DNA of 64,000 bases from Gammaproteobacteria bacterium. GTDB lineage: Bacteria; Pseudomonadota; Gammaproteobacteria; Eutrophobiales; Eutrophobiaceae. Position 1 is the first letter of the stretch, and every line of letters starts with the position of its first letter. The position numbers and the translations under genes are program-made. The stretch spans positions 224,001 to 288,000 of the forward strand of contig CBDCTH010000004.1 of the NCBI GenBank assembly GCA_965222155.1, read 5' to 3'. The notes under the pieces were generated by a model. That model was not told the origin of the DNA. It saw only the letters and a program-made list of their open reading frames with translations, and made no database searches. Shown one piece after another: positions 38,366 to 44,570 of this stretch.

Positions 38366-39166
38366 TCACAGTTTGACAAACTTCATGGTCATCCTGTCGC
38401 TTTCGCCTATGGCGGTGTATTTTGCCCTGTCCTTCTCACCCAGGCGGTACGTGGGAGGCAGGGTCCAGACGCCCTCCGGATAATCCTTGGTGTCTTTTGG
38501 GTTGGCATTGGTTTCCGATTTTTTCACCAGTTCAAAGCCCATGCCTTCCAGCAGTCCGATCAGGTAACTTTCAGGCACGTAGCCGAGTTCGGCGCTTTCC
38601 TTGGCATCGCTCCCGGGTTCGGCCCGGTGCTGGACCACGCCCAGAGTCCCGCCGGGCTTGAGCACCCGGTAAAGTGAACGGTATATGTCTTCCACAGCGC
38701 CGGAACGGATCCAGTTGTGGGTATTGCGAAACGTCAGCACCACGTCGAAACCGGCATCCTCGAAGTTCTCCAGGTATGCCTCACCCTGGAACACGCCGAG
38801 TACGACCTTGCCGTAAATCTCCGGTTCGCCGTCAAATTTTTCCACAAGTTTGTTATGAATGCTGCGCAGGTACTCAACGGAATGTTCATGGCCGAAACTG
38901 GCGACCGCGAGCAGGCCGTCATCTTTCAGGTACGGGGCCAGTATCTCTGTATACCAGCCGCCGCCGGGCAGGATTTCAAGCACGCGCATATCCGGCTTGA
39001 TGCCGAAGAACGACAGGGTTTCCTTGGGATGGCGATAGACGTCCCTGGCTACGTTTTTCGCATCCCGTTGTGATCCTGAGATGACCGCGTCCAGCGGGTC
39101 CGGGCCGTTTTCGGCACATCCTGAAACCACAACCGTGAACAACAAGAAACTGATTACACTTCGCAC
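38366..39166 (-). CDS. Predicted lipoprotein class I SAM-dependent methyltransferase
   Basis: RDVYRHPKETLSFFG, EILPGGGWYT, LTFRNTHNW, IGESDRM. Confidence 0.88.
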   Translation of the reverse strand: MRSVISFLLFTVVVSGCAENGPDPLDAVISGSQRDAKNVARDVYRHPKETLSFFGIKPDMRVLEILPGGGWYTEILAPYLKDDGLLAVASFGHEHSVEYLRSIHNKLVEKFDGEPEIYGKVVLGVFQGEAYLENFEDAGFDVVLTFRNTHNWIRSGAVEDIYRSLYRVLKPGGTLGVVQHRAEPGSDAKESAELGYVPESYLIGLLEGMGFELVKKSETNANPKDTKDYPEGVWTLPPTYRLGEKDRAKYTAIGESDRMTMKFVKL

Positions 39167-39268
39167 AATTTTTTCTCCTATAGTATTGACGCCATCTAAA
39201 CGTTACTATGACTTTGTTAAAGGACAAGTCAGGTTGCGATCCATATTTAATATGCCAACCAGTTTCTG

Positions 39269-40108
39269 TTACTCCAAATTTTCTCTGGAGAAATAGTTCT
39301 CTGAAATTCCCGCTTTTTTTGGTGTGGGATATGTCTCTATATCCGGCATCTCATCCTTTTTCAAATATTTCCTTGCATCTTTGGTAAATACGGTAACCAT
39401 GCCACTGGCAGCACATCTAATGCCCACTGGACGAGTTGTAGTCATGTTTTTATTACTTCCTGTGACTCCATGCCAAGGTTCCCCGCGTAATCCCTGCCAT
39501 TGAGCGAGGTAGAACAATGAACCGAATTGGCGAGTCGGTGGAGGTAAGGTGTCAATACCTCCAGGCCAATTTAAACCCGGTAATTCCCCGTTTTCAGCAC
39601 GACCAGCAAGTTCCAGATTTGTTTCTTTTAATTGTAACCCTATTGAGTGACAAATTTTCAGCGTATCTCCTGTGCTTATTTGTTTCCCCGAGAGATAGTT
39701 CTTACTATCCCCGGTAAACACTACAAGCCAACCTGTACGGGTACACATAAGAGGTATTTCCTGTGAGGGCGTTATATCCAGGTCTTTACCCGACAACCCT
39801 TGTAATTGAGCAAGATAGTACAAAGTGCCGTATTTCGCATTCAGCTCTTTATTTTTCTTGATGTCTTTTGCGTGCTTGCTGTTAATATCAATAAATTCGC
39901 TTATGCCACCAGCCCAGTTTAAGGTAGGCAATTGGCCATTCAGTGCTCTGCGGACGACCTCTGGTTTATTTCGGTGCCATTCTCGTCCGTTTTCCCAGCA
40001 GGTAATTAATCCGCCGTCATCACCATTCCAACGTTCATCGTAGGACAGTTCCCCCCGGTTCGGTTCTGAAAATTTTCTAGTGACTCGCTGTAATGCAGGA
40101 AGACTCAT
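39269..40108 (-). CDS. Hypothetical protein made of two tandem copies of an unrecognised domain
   Basis: ALNGQLPTLNWAGGI/AENGELPGLNWPGGI; YGTLYYLAQLQGLSG/FGSLFYLAQWQGLRG; CTRTGWLVVFTGD/CAASGMVTVFTKD. Confidence 0.75.
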   Translation of the reverse strand: MSLPALQRVTRKFSEPNRGELSYDERWNGDDGGLITCWENGREWHRNKPEVVRRALNGQLPTLNWAGGISEFIDINSKHAKDIKKNKELNAKYGTLYYLAQLQGLSGKDLDITPSQEIPLMCTRTGWLVVFTGDSKNYLSGKQISTGDTLKICHSIGLQLKETNLELAGRAENGELPGLNWPGGIDTLPPPTRQFGSLFYLAQWQGLRGEPWHGVTGSNKNMTTTRPVGIRCAASGMVTVFTKDARKYLKKDEMPDIETYPTPKKAGISENYFSRENLE

Positions 40109-40142
40109 ATGACGATATTCTGTGCTTCATTGATCTTTCGGG

Positions 40143-41180
40143 TTATTTCTGCTGTGCTTTCTTTGCTGCCAGGGTTTGTAGGGGAACAGGTGGTTGATGG
40201 TTGGCTACCAGTGAGAGAAAATCCGTCTCGCTGATGATTTTTATATCGTGTCCCCCTGAAATTAACTCTTCAGCTTTAATATGTTTACTGCTTTTTCCCG
40301 AAGATGATTTAATTGCAGAATTTTTTTGAATTCCGCTGACTAAAATTGTTGTTTTCTTGGAAACGGAAGTACTAACCTTACAGCCCATAAATGATGCGTA
40401 AATTGCGGCCTCAGCGCGAGGCATTTGTAATTCTCCTGTGAACACGAGTACCTCTCCGAAATGTTCTCCATCAGGATTACCTTCTCTCCTGAGAGGTTCA
40501 TATGTTTGTCTTTCCCGCTTTTTCCTGTGGAAATTATTTTTCTCGAATATGCGCAGCCAGTATTCTATATCGACATGTTTTTCACGACAGGCTGCAAGTG
40601 TAATCTCTGCCGCAGCTACTGCATCCTCCAATGCATCGTGATGCCTGAATTCATATCCAATGTAATGTGCCACGTTTTTAAGTCCATATCCCCGCTGACC
40701 AAATTTCTCCGCCCATGCACGACGTACTACCTTGGCGCTGTCCAGCCAATAGACTTGTAATTGGTCCTGTCCGTATTTATCCATAGATGTTTCAAAGGCG
40801 CTACGGTCGAAGCTGGTATGTGATACCAGCACCTGACCCCGAAGGCGTTGTCGTAGTTCCTCCCGGACTTCTGGCAAGGTCGGAGACTCTTGAACCTGCT
40901 TTGCTGTGATGCCGTGTATGCCGATATTGAAATCGTCAAATTCATCTTCGGGGTCTACCAATGTACTCCAGCGGTCATTAATCTGGCCATCAACAACATG
41001 AGCTATTCCAATCTGACATATGGTTGAACGATCACTATTAGCAGTTTCAACATCCACGGCATTAAATGTCATCCCGCATCCAGCCACATCTTCCAGGGAC
41101 AACCCCTGTTTGCCTCTGTTTTCACGCAGGTTTGTAATGGTGGTATCAGGGTCATTGAGTTGGAATTTAATGCTAATCAT
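40143..41180 (-). CDS. DEDDh (DnaQ-like) 3'-5' exonuclease with C-terminal BRCT domain (alternative start 41072)
   Basis: VDVETAN, SHTSFD, HHDALEDA, VLVFTGEL-VSKKTTILV. Confidence 0.9.
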   Translation of the reverse strand: MISIKFQLNDPDTTITNLRENRGKQGLSLEDVAGCGMTFNAVDVETANSDRSTICQIGIAHVVDGQINDRWSTLVDPEDEFDDFNIGIHGITAKQVQESPTLPEVREELRQRLRGQVLVSHTSFDRSAFETSMDKYGQDQLQVYWLDSAKVVRRAWAEKFGQRGYGLKNVAHYIGYEFRHHDALEDAVAAAEITLAACREKHVDIEYWLRIFEKNNFHRKKRERQTYEPLRREGNPDGEHFGEVLVFTGELQMPRAEAAIYASFMGCKVSTSVSKKTTILVSGIQKNSAIKSSSGKSSKHIKAEELISGGHDIKIISETDFLSLVANHQPPVPLQTLAAKKAQQK

Positions 41181-41273
41181 TGTAAATATTTCTAATACAT
41201 TTCAATATGTTTGGTGACACTGAAAAATAACATAGCAAATGAATACATTTGTAAATTGCGAAGTTATATAAAA

Positions 41274-41981
41274 TCACATATCAGCATATTGTGCATATGC
41301 ATCTGACTCCAATCTGTTTTTTCTAATTCCTGATCGTGACCAGTGTTGGTCTATTTCCTGAATAAAGGAGGGGCGCACCAGTTTTGCCCTCTTTACCAGC
41401 CAGTTATCACTCTCATATCTGATGCATATACCCTCTGCCGGTTGGTCGCCGAGTTTTGACTTCGCAAGTAACAACTTAATTTCGTCGAGAGTAAAGCGGC
41501 CGCGGGCAAGTAAGGGAACATGTTCAACACCTATTTCCCGCAACAACTCATCGCGCCGATTGACAGCCAGAAAATTATCGGTTTGTTTATCATAAACATC
41601 AAAACCCAGAAACCAGTCAGGCAGCCAGTCGTACTTAACAGAATGCTGGGCATAACACCATTCTCCAAACAGGATATAGCGCTCACTGATTATATCGAAA
41701 AAAGTTTCCGTTCTAGGAGCTAACCAGCCGGCCAGACTTTTCCATTGACCTGAGCCAGGGAGACGCAGGTAGTCGCCTCTGTTTTGAGCGCGAATATTCC
41801 CATCGGAATCAAACGAGATGCCAAGATTAGCTCCATCCACTTTTTCTTCAATAATGAGTTCGTGTTGCAGGAATTCATCACGCTCAGATTTTGACATGAC
41901 CTTATCACCCCTCACTGACATGTCTTCGAGCACCGTCAAGTGAGAGGTGGAGGGATACTTGAAGAAATCAGACGATTTCAT
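41274..41981 (-). CDS. RNA ligase family nucleotidyltransferase
   Basis: KYPSTSHL, motif I EEKVDGAN, LFGEW, FDVYD, EGICIR, RAKLV. Confidence 0.85.
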   Translation of the reverse strand: MKSSDFFKYPSTSHLTVLEDMSVRGDKVMSKSERDEFLQHELIIEEKVDGANLGISFDSDGNIRAQNRGDYLRLPGSGQWKSLAGWLAPRTETFFDIISERYILFGEWCYAQHSVKYDWLPDWFLGFDVYDKQTDNFLAVNRRDELLREIGVEHVPLLARGRFTLDEIKLLLAKSKLGDQPAEGICIRYESDNWLVKRAKLVRPSFIQEIDQHWSRSGIRKNRLESDAYAQYADM

Positions 41982-42517
41982 TGCTTCATCTTTTTTGGAT
42001 ATTTTTCTTTAACATAGTCAGGGCAAAGGAAGCGAACATCAATACCAACTTCTGACAAAGCATCCTTCCAACCCCACCACTTGCTGTCTGTTGCTTGAAA
42101 GATCGGCGGTTTTTGAGTGTCATAATGCGCGTTAGCCACTGCTACGAACTTTCGATCATCTGTATCAAAGTTTTCCAGATCATCATGTTCGGGAAATTCT
42201 TTATACGTGTATTTTAGGCGGTGAATTGAAATGCGTGCGACTTTATCGCGGTACCATTGATAGTCATGGACCCATTTCATAAACTTGTCTCCCAGCCCAG
42301 GCGCTCCCTTATAAGAGAGGTATCTGGAGTATTCTTCAACTATTTCTCCGGTGTCATCAATGACCAAGCCACCATTCTTGCAAACATGGTCAATGACTTT
42401 AACGCAGGCGTTTATACAGTCCAACGAAATACCGTTATTTACATCATAGCTGGTTGCAAGATTGGCAACTTTCGGAACGTTGGTATCAATCACACACTTA
42501 TCAGGGAGATCGTTCAT
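41978..42517 (-). CDS. PIN-like nuclease
   Basis: VIDTNV, EIVEEY, DTDDRKFVAVA and ATDSK acidic PIN pattern. Confidence 0.7.
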   Translation of the reverse strand: MNDLPDKCVIDTNVPKVANLATSYDVNNGISLDCINACVKVIDHVCKNGGLVIDDTGEIVEEYSRYLSYKGAPGLGDKFMKWVHDYQWYRDKVARISIHRLKYTYKEFPEHDDLENFDTDDRKFVAVANAHYDTQKPPIFQATDSKWWGWKDALSEVGIDVRFLCPDYVKEKYPKKMKQ

Positions 42518-43923
42518 TCATCTCCGGTTGCAGCAGCAGATTCCTGTTCCAACCGCCTCTGCACAGCCCATTTTGCCTGTTCCGTAATATCTCCCATCTC
42601 ATCCCCGAAAAAGTGATTCGGCCAATTTCGAATGTTGCCAAAAGGATCAATTTTTAATGGCTCCAGGATTGGTCGTGCGCCGGAGGTATTTGCGAAATAG
42701 GCCGATACTTCGTCCTCTGATATTATTTCCTCGGCGATACGTCGTTGTAGTCGCCTGAGGAAATGTTCAGAATGAGTCTCTATAATCAGTTGAATGTTTC
42801 TGGCTGAATAATTTTCGCGTGATTTTATTACATCAATCATCACATCTGCCAATGCCGATTGAGCTCTGGGATGGAGATGAATCTCCGGTTGCTCCATAAT
42901 GATGATCGAACCGGGTGGAGCATAGAAACACTGCACGAGTACAGGGAGCACTTGGGAAATACCGAAACCGACATCCGGAAGATCCACCCAGTCTGTCGAA
43001 AGCTTGGTCCTGAGCTTCACCTCATACTCCTGTCGTAGTTCAGAAATGGGCTTGATCTCAAATTCATCAATTAATTCCATCTCCTTGAGCTTTAACGCGA
43101 TAATCTCTTCAAGAAACATATTCCACTTATTGGGCCCGGGACTGATTTTGCGCCCTCTAGCCGCTATAATGGCTGCTACAGTATATTCGCCCGTGAATCC
43201 CACACTATCCGGTTTTGTCCCAGACCAAGCATACAGCCGTTCGGCTTTTGTACGTAGTGGGCCGAGATAGTAAAGCGACCGGAACAATCTTTCGTGCTGC
43301 AAGTTCAAATCTTGAACAAAATCAGCATTTTGATAGTAAGCAACTACTTCGTCAGGAAATCCATAAAAGCGAAGGGGGGCGCCCAGAGGCCAAGCGCGAC
43401 CCCTTTTGCGTATCAATATATCCGGGTCAGGCGTAATCTCATATTCTGACTTGGCCTCAGGTGTACGTTTCATTTCAATGATTAAATTGATTTTATCGTT
43501 TTCATGTAACTCGTATTTAAGATTGTTCACAAGCGGTGTCGGTACGCGCTGATTTTTTTCAAGCTCAACTTCGGCTTGAAAATCTAATTCAACTCCAGAA
43601 AATGTATCCCCTGAAATTGGATCTTTGAATCTCAAAGTATCCAATGATGACCATCTGTACTTAAACTCTATTCTTTCTGTTGGGTCACGCCCATATACCA
43701 TCTTCTGGAAAGAACCGAGTTGTACTACTGAGTCTTTTCCGCCCGGATAAAATACGGTTCTTCGGTCAGATGAATCAGCCGTTTGTTTCAACATCATTAG
43801 GAACTGACCTATACTAGATTTACCGGAACTGTTGGCGCCAAAAAACAGAGTAATTGGGGCCAGACGAATATCGCCAGTATCCTTCCAAGCCTTGAAATTT
43901 TGAATTCGTAAACTTTTGAGCAT
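42514..43923 (-). CDS. ABC-type ATPase (AAA_15/AAA_21 with DUF3696-like C-terminus)
   Basis: GANSSGKSS, VGFGISQVLP, MEQPEIHLHP, ETHSEH, GNIRNWP-FFGD. Confidence 0.9.
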   Translation of the reverse strand: MLKSLRIQNFKAWKDTGDIRLAPITLFFGANSSGKSSIGQFLMMLKQTADSSDRRTVFYPGGKDSVVQLGSFQKMVYGRDPTERIEFKYRWSSLDTLRFKDPISGDTFSGVELDFQAEVELEKNQRVPTPLVNNLKYELHENDKINLIIEMKRTPEAKSEYEITPDPDILIRKRGRAWPLGAPLRFYGFPDEVVAYYQNADFVQDLNLQHERLFRSLYYLGPLRTKAERLYAWSGTKPDSVGFTGEYTVAAIIAARGRKISPGPNKWNMFLEEIIALKLKEMELIDEFEIKPISELRQEYEVKLRTKLSTDWVDLPDVGFGISQVLPVLVQCFYAPPGSIIIMEQPEIHLHPRAQSALADVMIDVIKSRENYSARNIQLIIETHSEHFLRRLQRRIAEEIISEDEVSAYFANTSGARPILEPLKIDPFGNIRNWPNHFFGDEMGDITEQAKWAVQRRLEQESAAATGDE

Positions 43924-43954
43924 TTTACTATTCTATAAGTTGTGATAACGGGAC

Positions 43955-44269
43955 CTATAAGTTGCCTGTAGCAATCCAGCGATACTTTACTATGTCAATT
44001 GTATCATCCTCTGAGAAAACGATGCCCTCCGCTTCAAGCAAGATCCGTTGCATGTAATGTCCTTCCGAGCCGCTGCGCAGGCTGATCATGCCCTGGCTGT
44101 TGATGATCCTGTGCCAGGGTATCGCGCTGTCGCCGGACAGGGCCGCCATGGCGTAGCCCACCTGCCGTGCTGAGCATTTCCCCGCCAGCCCGGCTATCTG
44201 GCCGTAAGTGGCAACCTTTCCTTCCGGGACCCGGCGCACCCATTCATAGATTCTGTCATAAACGCTCAT
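43955..44269 (-). CDS. Alkyltransferase-like protein (Atl/YbaZ)
   Basis: GKVATYGQIA, ARQVG, PWHRI (Trp in place of the catalytic Cys). Confidence 0.9.
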   Translation of the reverse strand: MSVYDRIYEWVRRVPEGKVATYGQIAGLAGKCSARQVGYAMAALSGDSAIPWHRIINSQGMISLRSGSEGHYMQRILLEAEGIVFSEDDTIDIVKYRWIATGNL

Positions 44270-44570
44270 TAAACCTGTCTATCCGGGTTACCTGCACCTG
44301 GTAGTCGGCGTACCACTTTGAGCGCCCCAGTTCCTGGGCCGTCCGGTGTTCCGGGTGCGCTTTCCAGGCCTTGACGGCGTCGAGACTTTCCCAGTAGGAA
44401 ATGGTGATCTCGCGCCTTCCTTCCATATTGTGGTATTTGCCGATATAACCGGGCTGTTCCTGAACCAGTTCATTCATCCTTTGCGCCATATCCGCATAAC
44501 CGGTCACGTCGGCAGCCATTTCTGCGGTGAATACCACCGCGTAATAGCTGTCATCCTTATCTCTCATCAT
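44256..44570 (-). CDS. Antibiotic biosynthesis monooxygenase family protein
   Basis: YYAVVF, QPGYIG, ISYWESLDAVKAWK-EH-QELGR-WY. Confidence 0.88.
   Translation of the reverse strand: MMRDKDDSYYAVVFTAEMAADVTGYADMAQRMNELVQEQPGYIGKYHNMEGRREITISYWESLDAVKAWKAHPEHRTAQELGRSKWYADYQVQVTRIDRFNERL

Follow-up and report, generated by a model that had tools for sequence, protein, structure and literature searches.

Why would a bacterial operon that encodes a nuclease and its presumed switch also encode an enzyme of the kind that joins RNA ends? The question is raised by three genes in a gammaproteobacterial genome (Eutrophobiales, Eutrophobiaceae; GenBank assembly GCA_965222155.1), within 64,000 nucleotides of contig CBDCTH010000004.1 (positions 224,001 to 288,000 of the forward strand), the whole of which is referred to here as the window. 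All three lie on the minus strand. They encode an ABC-type ATPase of 469 aa with a C-terminal DUF3696 tail (42514..43923), a VapC-like PIN-domain protein of 179 aa (41978..42517), and a stand-alone ATP-dependent RNA-ligase nucleotidyltransferase domain of 235 aa (41274..41981). At both the ATPase/PIN and the PIN/ligase junction the sequence reads ATGA, so that the ATG start of the second gene runs into the TGA stop of the first (GAATGAACG and CAATGAAAT). The trio appears to be a ligase-bearing, three-gene form of the HEC-03 family, an identity in which we place much more confidence than in any statement of mechanism.

HEC-03 (Hma-embedded candidate 03) is described as a two-gene system, an ABC ATPase and a VapC-like PIN protein, that was discovered within Hma systems (Payne et al., bioRxiv 10.1101/2024.01.29.577857). 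The same preprint reports that a representative in E. coli reduced phage plaquing, that both genes were required, and that the system was toxic with IPTG; its authors name the ATPase A and the PIN protein B, the reverse of the PADLOC labels (10.1101/2024.01.29.577857). A 2026 preprint still calls the mechanism undescribed. In the window, the ATPase matches PADLOC model PDLC04148 ('HEC-03B') at 1.3e-123 (411.5 bits; residues 1-461 on profile positions 1-456 of 458) and the PIN protein matches PDLC04147 ('HEC-03A') at 2.6e-34 (116.6 bits; residues 8-169 on positions 3-155 of 159). Thus both proteins match their models over full length, the predicted fold is VapC-like, and the ATPase gene immediately precedes a PIN gene of the same orientation, as in HEC-03; the two-gene composition differs, in that a third, overlapping gene for an RNA ligase is present. 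Because of that gene we file the locus as a HEC-03 variant and not as a plain member.

By these matches, the ATPase-PIN core is an already known, named, and phage-tested system. The original prediction, which took the trio for a candidate RNA cut-and-repair defense system, had not recognized it as a named one. That view has to be given up for the ATPase and PIN genes, which correspond to a published, phage-protective system, and it stands for the ligase. The new element is the ligase as a conserved third gene, for which no mention was found in the literature searched. The word 'ligase' is absent from the main text of the HEC-03 preprint (10.1101/2024.01.29.577857), and a literature search returned no paper combining DUF3696 with 'RNA ligase' and none on an ATPase-PIN-ligase trio, although an earlier mention in comparative genomics is possible.

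What does each protein contribute? The ATPase was identified through Pfam (AAA_15, 7.8e-26; AAA_21, 4.3e-21; DUF3696, 4.3e-09), and 131 family ATPases share the Walker A motif GANSSGKSS, the H-loop, and the invariant sequence E344-Q345-P-E347-x-HLHP. Engineered E-to-Q changes in other ABC ATPases trap the ATP-bound state. In this family the change is natural: the Walker B segment (residues 340-352, IIIM-E-Q-P-E-I-HLHP) has E-Q in place of the canonical D-E, and does so in 131 of 131 sequences. A natural E-Q pair suggests an ATP-binding switch rather than a fast hydrolase or motor, and by analogy the ATPase is presumed to be the sensor or switch subunit of the HEC-03 family.

The 179-aa protein has no Pfam, NCBIfam, or PHROG family, and no match to it was found among phage records. 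An AlphaFold2 model built from 25 sequences (pLDDT 91.9, pTM 0.89) returned nothing from the Protein Data Bank (PDB) at E 0.001 or better with Foldseek, the best match being the PIN domain of RRP44 at 0.023. With VIA-align (48,161 chains), PIN domains fill almost all of the first 41 rows, and the top matches are VapC11 (6a7v_A; Z 9.0, rmsd 3.1, 125 residues) and VapC15 (Z 9.0). The resemblance to VapBC stops at the fold, as there is no VapB gene and the upstream partner, joined by a 4-nt overlap, is the ABC ATPase, a point that the HEC-03 authors make as well. Residues D11, D54, E62, Y63, D118, D121, and D144 (window numbering) are kept across 33 PIN representatives at 23-38% identity. Counted locus by locus, six of them (D11, D54, E62, D118, D121, and D144) persist in 96-97 of the 97 with a ligase and in 42-43 of the 43 without one. 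Because the acidic residues are retained across the family the PIN protein looks catalytically active, and by analogy with VapC it is presumed to be the RNase effector.

The third protein is the least expected. It matches Pfam PF09414 (RNA_ligase) at 8.9e-34 over residues 41-201 and PHROG 24030 ('RNA ligase') at 2.7e-24, and no PADLOC (2.0) model matches it at E 0.01. Across 90 sequences the ligase motifs are conserved: I (K47-x-D49-G50), III (L104-FGEW108), IIIa (F127-D128), IV (E183-G184), and V (R198-x-K200). Its AlphaFold2 model is a single domain (pLDDT 87.5) with 67 Foldseek matches at E 0.001 or better, led by REL1 (1xdn, 6.3e-08), Pab1020 (2vug, 6.3e-08), NgrRnl (5cot, 7.5e-08), and T4 Rnl2 (2hvr, 9.6e-08), all at probability 1.00. 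Its sequence similarity to ligases of solved structure is weak (best E 0.0025). It shares the adenylyltransferase fold and motifs I, III, IIIa, IV, and V with the Rnl2 (T4 Rnl2, REL1), Rnl3 (Pab1020, MthRnl), and Rnl5 (NgrRnl) families. It consists of the adenylyltransferase domain with short ends and carries no accessory domains, so that the C-domain of Rnl2, the dimerization and C-domains of Rnl3, and the N-terminal OB domain of Rnl5 are all lacking; the matched structures are 317-389 aa long. For these three proteins the original prediction fared well. Its ABC-type ATPase, PIN fold, and RNA ligase are borne out by the family and structure matches, and the motifs that it named as intact (Walker A GANSSGKSS, H-loop ETHSEH, ligase motif I K47-V-D49-G50, and the PIN acidic residues) are conserved. 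The open reading frame coordinates were exact, and both junctions read as the 4-nt overlaps between co-oriented genes that it had described.

Relatives of this ligase also occur outside the trio. There are 274 phage records that encode relatives at no more than 32% identity, 184 of them from Staphylococcus phages and 55 from Bacillus phages; among the matches listed, 19 of 20 cover at least 85% of the 235 residues, and jumbo phages are included. Two plasmids, one of P. aeruginosa (L171) and one of Variovorax (L173), carry relatives of about 285 aa at about 31% identity that adjoin an unrelated AAA family ATPase of about 380 aa, which from sequence looks like a different ligase-ATPase pair.

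Do the ligase and PIN structures point to RNA or to DNA? Conceivably, the PIN protein nicks DNA or RNA-DNA hybrids, such as phage replication or transcription intermediates, and a nick-sealing ligase protects or restores host molecules. The ligase model does match the nick-sealing enzymes NgrRnl and T4 Rnl2 no less well than it does other ligases, the module often lies between a DNA methylase and an SNF2 helicase, and in one lineage an HNH protein, typically a DNA nuclease, replaces the ligase (both described below). However, DNA ligase structures score worse (T4 DNA ligase 2.0e-04 and ligase IV 3.1e-04, versus about 1e-07 for RNA ligases), the Pfam family of the ligase, PF09414, comprises RNA ligases, and the best structural matches of the PIN protein are VapC RNases, to which the HEC-03 preprint also likens its PIN protein. 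We therefore regard a DNA or hybrid substrate as highly improbable.

Is the ligase a regular part of the system or a chance neighbor? The PIN alignment was searched against 185,579 species genomes, which gave 204 relatives in many phyla, and the best 80 were kept; a metagenome scan seeded with distant PIN proteins (an 11-row alignment) gave 525 relatives, of which the best 80 were also kept. In all, 165 loci were fetched, 164 had a usable PIN match, and 143 were assessable, the other 21 having <500 nt beyond the PIN gene. Among the assessable loci the ligase gene directly follows the PIN gene in 97, is displaced by an insertion in 1, survives as a remnant or cut copy in 2, and is absent from 43, pooled figures that do not give a population frequency, as the two scans were deliberately seeded in different clades. 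Because this gene order recurs in 97 of the 143, chance adjacency is excluded. Conservation of the ligase beside ATPase-PIN homologues was the test that the original prediction had set for itself beforehand, and on it the prediction survives.

The two scans differ in composition. For the best 80 of the 204 genome relatives, an ATPase gene is found upstream in 79 and a ligase relative downstream in 76 (tblastn). More finely, these 80 loci comprise 74 with an adjacent ligase gene, 1 with a displaced one (L065), 1 with a remnant (L069), 1 in which the gene is cut by the contig end (L007), 2 with no ligase (L052, L054), and 1 that was not assessable (L077). For the best 80 of the 525 metagenome relatives, the ATPase-then-PIN order is kept in 78; the ligase was identified in 19 loci and missing from 40, with 20 not assessable and 1 having no usable PIN match. 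Where the ligase is absent, the gene after the PIN gene encodes a DNA methylase, a HEPN-DUF499 ATPase, an SNF2 helicase, or an unrelated protein, and never a ligase. Annotated plasmids yielded 12 PIN matches at 34-41% identity, and on plasmids of Aeromonas, Azotobacter, Tistrella, and Rhodococcus the successive genes are annotated 'DUF3696 domain-containing protein / hypothetical protein / RNA ligase family protein'.

A phylogeny of 131 ATPases (FastTree) indicates how the ligase is distributed. One clade of 88 rows comprises 82 with the ligase, 4 nested rows without it, and 2 unassigned; a second clade of 40 rows comprises 27 without the ligase, 12 not assessable, and 1 with it; and three deep plasmid branches are also ligase-bearing. 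Mapped onto this tree, the presence of the ligase requires 6 changes, compared with a mean of 37.6 when labels are shuffled, and none of 500 shuffles gave so low a number. Judged from this phylogeny, loci with the ligase group into a single clade in which it has seldom been lost. Scores from the PADLOC HEC-03 models are higher for the clade that lacks the ligase (ATPase 465-564 bits, PIN 105-133 bits) than for the ligase-bearing one (ATPase 414-433, PIN 97-107), compared with 411.5 and 116.6 in the window. Because of this difference we place the window in the sister clade of the modeled HEC-03, and the phage-tested HEC-03 probably belongs to the ligase-less sister clade.

These distributions bear on whether the ligase might be a single cargo gene, independent of HEC-03 and simply carried along with it, for example as general RNA repair against foreign ribotoxins. 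Distant ligase relatives (no more than 34% identity) do occur in other contexts, some beside the unrelated AAA ATPase of about 380 aa, and ATPase-PIN pairs exist and persist without a ligase. The genes of the trio are nonetheless closely bound. An NTGA stop/start overlap joins the ATPase and PIN genes in 119 of 159 loci and the PIN and ligase genes in 85 of 97, and gene order is constant over many phyla. Across 77 loci, pairwise distances are correlated between ATPase and PIN (r 0.88), ATPase and ligase (0.85), and PIN and ligase (0.84), with a Mantel p of 0.001, so that the ligase has co-diverged with its partners (r about 0.85). A correlation of this kind shows that the three are inherited together; it does not show that the proteins touch. 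The nine best plasmid matches to the ligase (44-48% identity) are all in records that also hold the PIN gene, and the trio was read in four of them; beyond these nine, identity falls to no more than 34%. The trio also appears to have been inserted as a unit in one genome of the same genus (G005, discussed below). An independent cargo gene is thus the least probable of the explanations we weighed.

In what surroundings does the ligase-bearing form occur? Defense-type surroundings were identified for 14 of 21 sampled ligase-bearing loci. Of these 21, 5 have a large N6_N4 methylase (about 940-1000 aa) on the upstream side and 8 have an SNF2 helicase (about 950-995 aa) on the downstream side; PglZ occurs in 2 and AEP-TOTE in 2, and GmrSD, an OLD-like ATPase, and AIPR are also found. 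The trio is therefore often embedded in larger systems. We had considered that ligase-bearing modules might stand alone, with only the ligase-less ones embedded, and these methylase, SNF2, PglZ, TOTE, GmrSD, OLD-like, and AIPR neighbors rule that out. Together with the PADLOC HEC-03 matches and the phage protection that the HEC-03 preprint reports, they uphold the defense context that the original prediction had assigned. In one locus (L038, 1309-3210), a second ATPase (634 aa, AAA_15 + DUF3696) and then a 363-aa protein without a family lie directly upstream of the ligase-bearing trio, and two DUF3696 systems may be stacked there.

How, then, might the three proteins work together? We suggest that the trio is one mobile anti-phage module, in which a PIN nuclease switched by the ATPase cuts RNA and the ligase reseals the breaks, and we hold this statement as a whole to be evenly poised between right and wrong. 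PIN nucleases are metal-dependent, and ATP-dependent RNA ligases of the Rnl families join 3'-OH and 5'-phosphate ends. The ABC ATPase would serve as sensor or switch, probably holding the PIN protein via the DUF3696 tail, and a phage cue would release or activate the VapC-like nuclease. The PIN protein would then cut cellular RNA, phage RNA, or both, leaving 3'-OH and 5'-phosphate ends, which the co-translated ligase could join without an end-healing enzyme. As an accessory repair arm resealing the breaks that the PIN protein makes, the ligase would limit leaky self-damage or aid the recovery of survivors. We infer the RNA target, the end chemistry, and the repair role of the ligase. For the chemistry, two-metal-ion nucleases leave 5'-phosphate and 3'-OH ends, as reported to be confirmed for the PARIS effector AriB (PMC12409363). 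If PIN ends were directly ligatable, this would explain why no kinase or phosphatase gene lies beside the ligase gene.

Contact between the ATPase and the PIN protein through DUF3696 would be expected by analogy with Menshen. NsnB of that system shares the ABC ATPase and DUF3696 build and a noncanonical Walker B, which is reported to read E-N (PMC12065111), and the window ATPase matches the NsnB model at 3.6e-62. NsnC is also described as starting with a PIN-like domain, and in published AF3 models the DUF3696 tail of NsnB sits on this domain (PMC12065111). In other respects the locus is not Menshen. There is no NsnA (ParB-DUF262), the upstream gene being atl, and no DUF262 match was obtained in the eight proteins scanned. 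In contrast to NsnC, whose PIN-like domain is described as lacking the catalytic acids and being followed by a separate C-terminal nuclease, the PIN protein here is a single domain with its acids kept. The word 'ligase' is absent from the Menshen paper in the text consulted (PMC12065111).

Other defense systems share the general logic of an ABC ATPase sensor with a nuclease effector. These include PARIS, OLD, Gabija, and Septu, and the window ATPase gives partial matches to the AriA (2.8e-29, best stretch 285-389) and GajA models. AriB, the PARIS effector, is reported to cut tRNA so as to leave 3'-OH and 5'-phosphate ends (PMC12409363). The effectors of these systems are, however, Toprim, HNH, or other nucleases and not PIN, and none is coupled to an RNA ligase in the descriptions consulted; Pfam and PADLOC scans gave no Toprim or DUF4435 match on any neighbor, whereas a PARIS locus would have one. 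The anticodon nucleases PrrC and RloC, taken with the Pnkp-Rnl1 repair pathway of phage T4, are described as linking an RNase to an ABC ATPase in abortive defense, with RNA ligation as the counter-move. In that case the ligase is a phage enzyme that depends on end-healing; in the trio it is encoded by the host module, beside a separate PIN gene and with no kinase or phosphatase. Pnkp1-Rnl-Hen1 and RtcB/RtcA are likewise described as host-encoded RNA ligation tied to ribotoxin damage. Those systems mend damage made by others, unlike the present operon, in which the nuclease is encoded alongside the ligase, and family scans identified no Pnkp, Hen1, or RtcB/RtcA-type enzyme among the proteins of the block.

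Several observations weigh against the proposal that the ligase reseals PIN-made breaks in RNA. The fold similarity to VapC, taken from a predicted structure, is the sole ground for RNA as the presumed target of the PIN protein, and the role given to the ligase in the trio is likewise one that we infer. T4 Rnl2 requires its extra domain for the RNA-adenylylation step. Because the window ligase is without the accessory domain that T4 Rnl2 needs, this bare nucleotidyltransferase domain may not seal breaks alone. A predicted complex of the PIN protein and the ligase scored ipSAE 0.00 and 0.00 against a mark of 0.32, a result that, run with no controls, is uninformative on binding. Five loci (L054, L089, L125, L147, and L069) have lost the ligase and keep full-length ATPase matches and the six PIN acidic residues, and the sister clade is largely ligase-less (27 of 40, with 12 not assessable and 1 ligase-bearing). 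By this distribution the ligase appears dispensable for keeping the ATPase-PIN pair. Because this ligase-less clade exists and the tested HEC-03 works with two genes, the ligase is not an obligate antidote. A repair activity that undoes the cut of the effector also seems counter-productive during infection unless it is regulated, and no regulator was found. Finally, on a plasmid of Acinetobacter soli (L083; CP119202.1, 5526-6284) an HNH_2 endonuclease of 252 aa (PF13391, 5.7e-12) occupies the position of the ligase, a substitution that may fit a swappable, effector-like slot better than a repair slot. The annotation of that locus splits the ATPase in two and has an N-6 DNA methylase gene upstream.

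A few proteins carry parts of the trio fused, each known from a single sequence. In P0272 (336 aa) the C-terminal half of the PIN protein and a complete ligase are read in one frame, P0270 (734 aa) combines an entire PIN protein with a protein like Glu/Gln-tRNA synthetase (GltX-like), and P0271 and P0203 join parts of the ATPase to PIN. All four could be assembly or gene-calling artefacts. As Rosetta-stone evidence the fused forms were set aside, as a search of longer proteins gave only three (one PIN-ligase, one ATPase-PIN, and one PIN-GltX-like), which is too thin.

The substitution in Acinetobacter soli is one ground for the main rival explanation, that the ligase is a co-effector making the damage permanent or beyond repair by phage enzymes. 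It might reseal RNA after a short excision, mis-join or circularize it, or leave 5'-adenylylated ends. An HNH_2 nuclease in the third slot suggests a position of effector type, and the ligase is accessory, not needed for tolerating the PIN protein. That phages carry relatives of this minimal ligase suggests that simple ligatable breaks would be easy for them to repair. Excision of the wobble nucleotide is reported for RloC, and phage tRNA repair enzymes are reported to counter PrrC (PMC2610378). The single frame of P0272 also points this way, although that sequence starts inside the PIN domain and may reflect a contig-end cut or a frameshift artefact. Set against these points, the PIN protein has one VapC-type active site and nothing indicates two cuts, no altered RNA product is in evidence, and plain resealing fits the chemistry equally well. 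On balance we think a co-effector role unlikely. We consider it rather more doubtful that the PIN protein and the ligase form a cut-and-rejoin immune effector that rewrites RNA, whereby a short stretch (for example of an anticodon loop or of rRNA) is removed or opened and the shortened or mis-joined RNA is sealed. If true, such an excise-and-seal lesion would have no free ends, the RNA-repair enzymes found in many phages could not reverse it, and the defense would be one conserved over many phyla of bacteria.

Returning to the proposed module of ATPase, PIN nuclease, and resealing ligase, is it mobile, and where does it end? The original prediction placed the trio in an AT-richer block inserted between atl and a methyltransferase gene. 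Every 500-bp interval between 39000 and 43999 has a GC content of 0.40-0.47, compared with 0.52-0.62 on either side. The low-GC block runs from about 39200 to 43950 between the flanking genes, a methyltransferase gene at 38366-39166 (identified by a Pfam scan) and, upstream of the ATPase gene, a gene for an Atl-like protein (PF01035) at 43955-44269. The low GC content, the flanks, and, from comparison within the genus, the insertion itself all stand. The extent needs amending, as the block is longer than the trio and holds two further genes, both on the minus strand. One encodes a DEDDh exonuclease with a BRCT domain (40143-41180; RNase_T 2.8e-20, BRCT 7.6e-05, PADLOC candidate PDC-S48 6.6e-32). 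The other is an open reading frame for a 279-aa protein of no assigned family (39269-40108).

The methyltransferase-atl site was compared across 12 genomes of the same genus (G001-G012). In five (G002, G006, G008, G010, and G011) the two genes are 36-166 bp apart, and in a sixth (G012) the distance is 585 bp. One genome (G005) has the ligase-PIN-ATPase trio alone between methyltransferase and atl, and two (G001 and G007) have the five-gene block there. The site was unreadable in G003, G004, and G009, in which the flank matches lie apart or the methyltransferase is unmatched. The methyltransferase-atl gap is thus a variable integration spot in the genus, empty in 5-6 of the 12 genomes. Because empty, trio-only, and five-gene states occur at one site, the trio is a discrete insertion unit.

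The exonuclease and the 279-aa gene might also be considered parts of the system, and this was ruled out. The pair accompanies the trio in just 3 of the 80 genome loci, is missing from the trio-bearing G005, and in G003 is present without the trio, elsewhere in the genome. It is a separate two-gene module. By eye, the 279-aa protein has an internal duplication ('...LNWAGGI...LYYLAQLQGL...' / '...LNWPGGI...LFYLAQWQGL...'). At E 0.01 it falls in no family of Pfam, PADLOC, or NCBIfam; its PHROG match is weak (0.0032), and a protein atlas search gave no usable match. Scans of 39000-44400 found 8 promoter-like sites compared with 9.5 expected, and 4 terminator-like sites compared with 5.1 expected, none of either kind being usable.

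What would a ligase in such a module mean? An intact ligase tightly coupled to the PIN gene, in a sizeable and broadly distributed portion of the family, hints strongly at an RNA substrate with ligatable 3'-OH and 5'-phosphate ends. Annotation tools built on two-gene HEC-03 miss the third component, PADLOC 2.0 having no ligase model. To our knowledge, RNA ligation in phage-host conflict is known mainly as a phage counter-move (T4 Pnkp/Rnl1) or as stand-alone repair (Pnkp-Hen1, RtcB). The trio offers a testable case of a host immune module that encodes both an RNase and an RNA ligase. Whichever role the ligase has, be it damage control, recovery, or the making of an unrepairable lesion, it would add a principle to abortive-infection systems.

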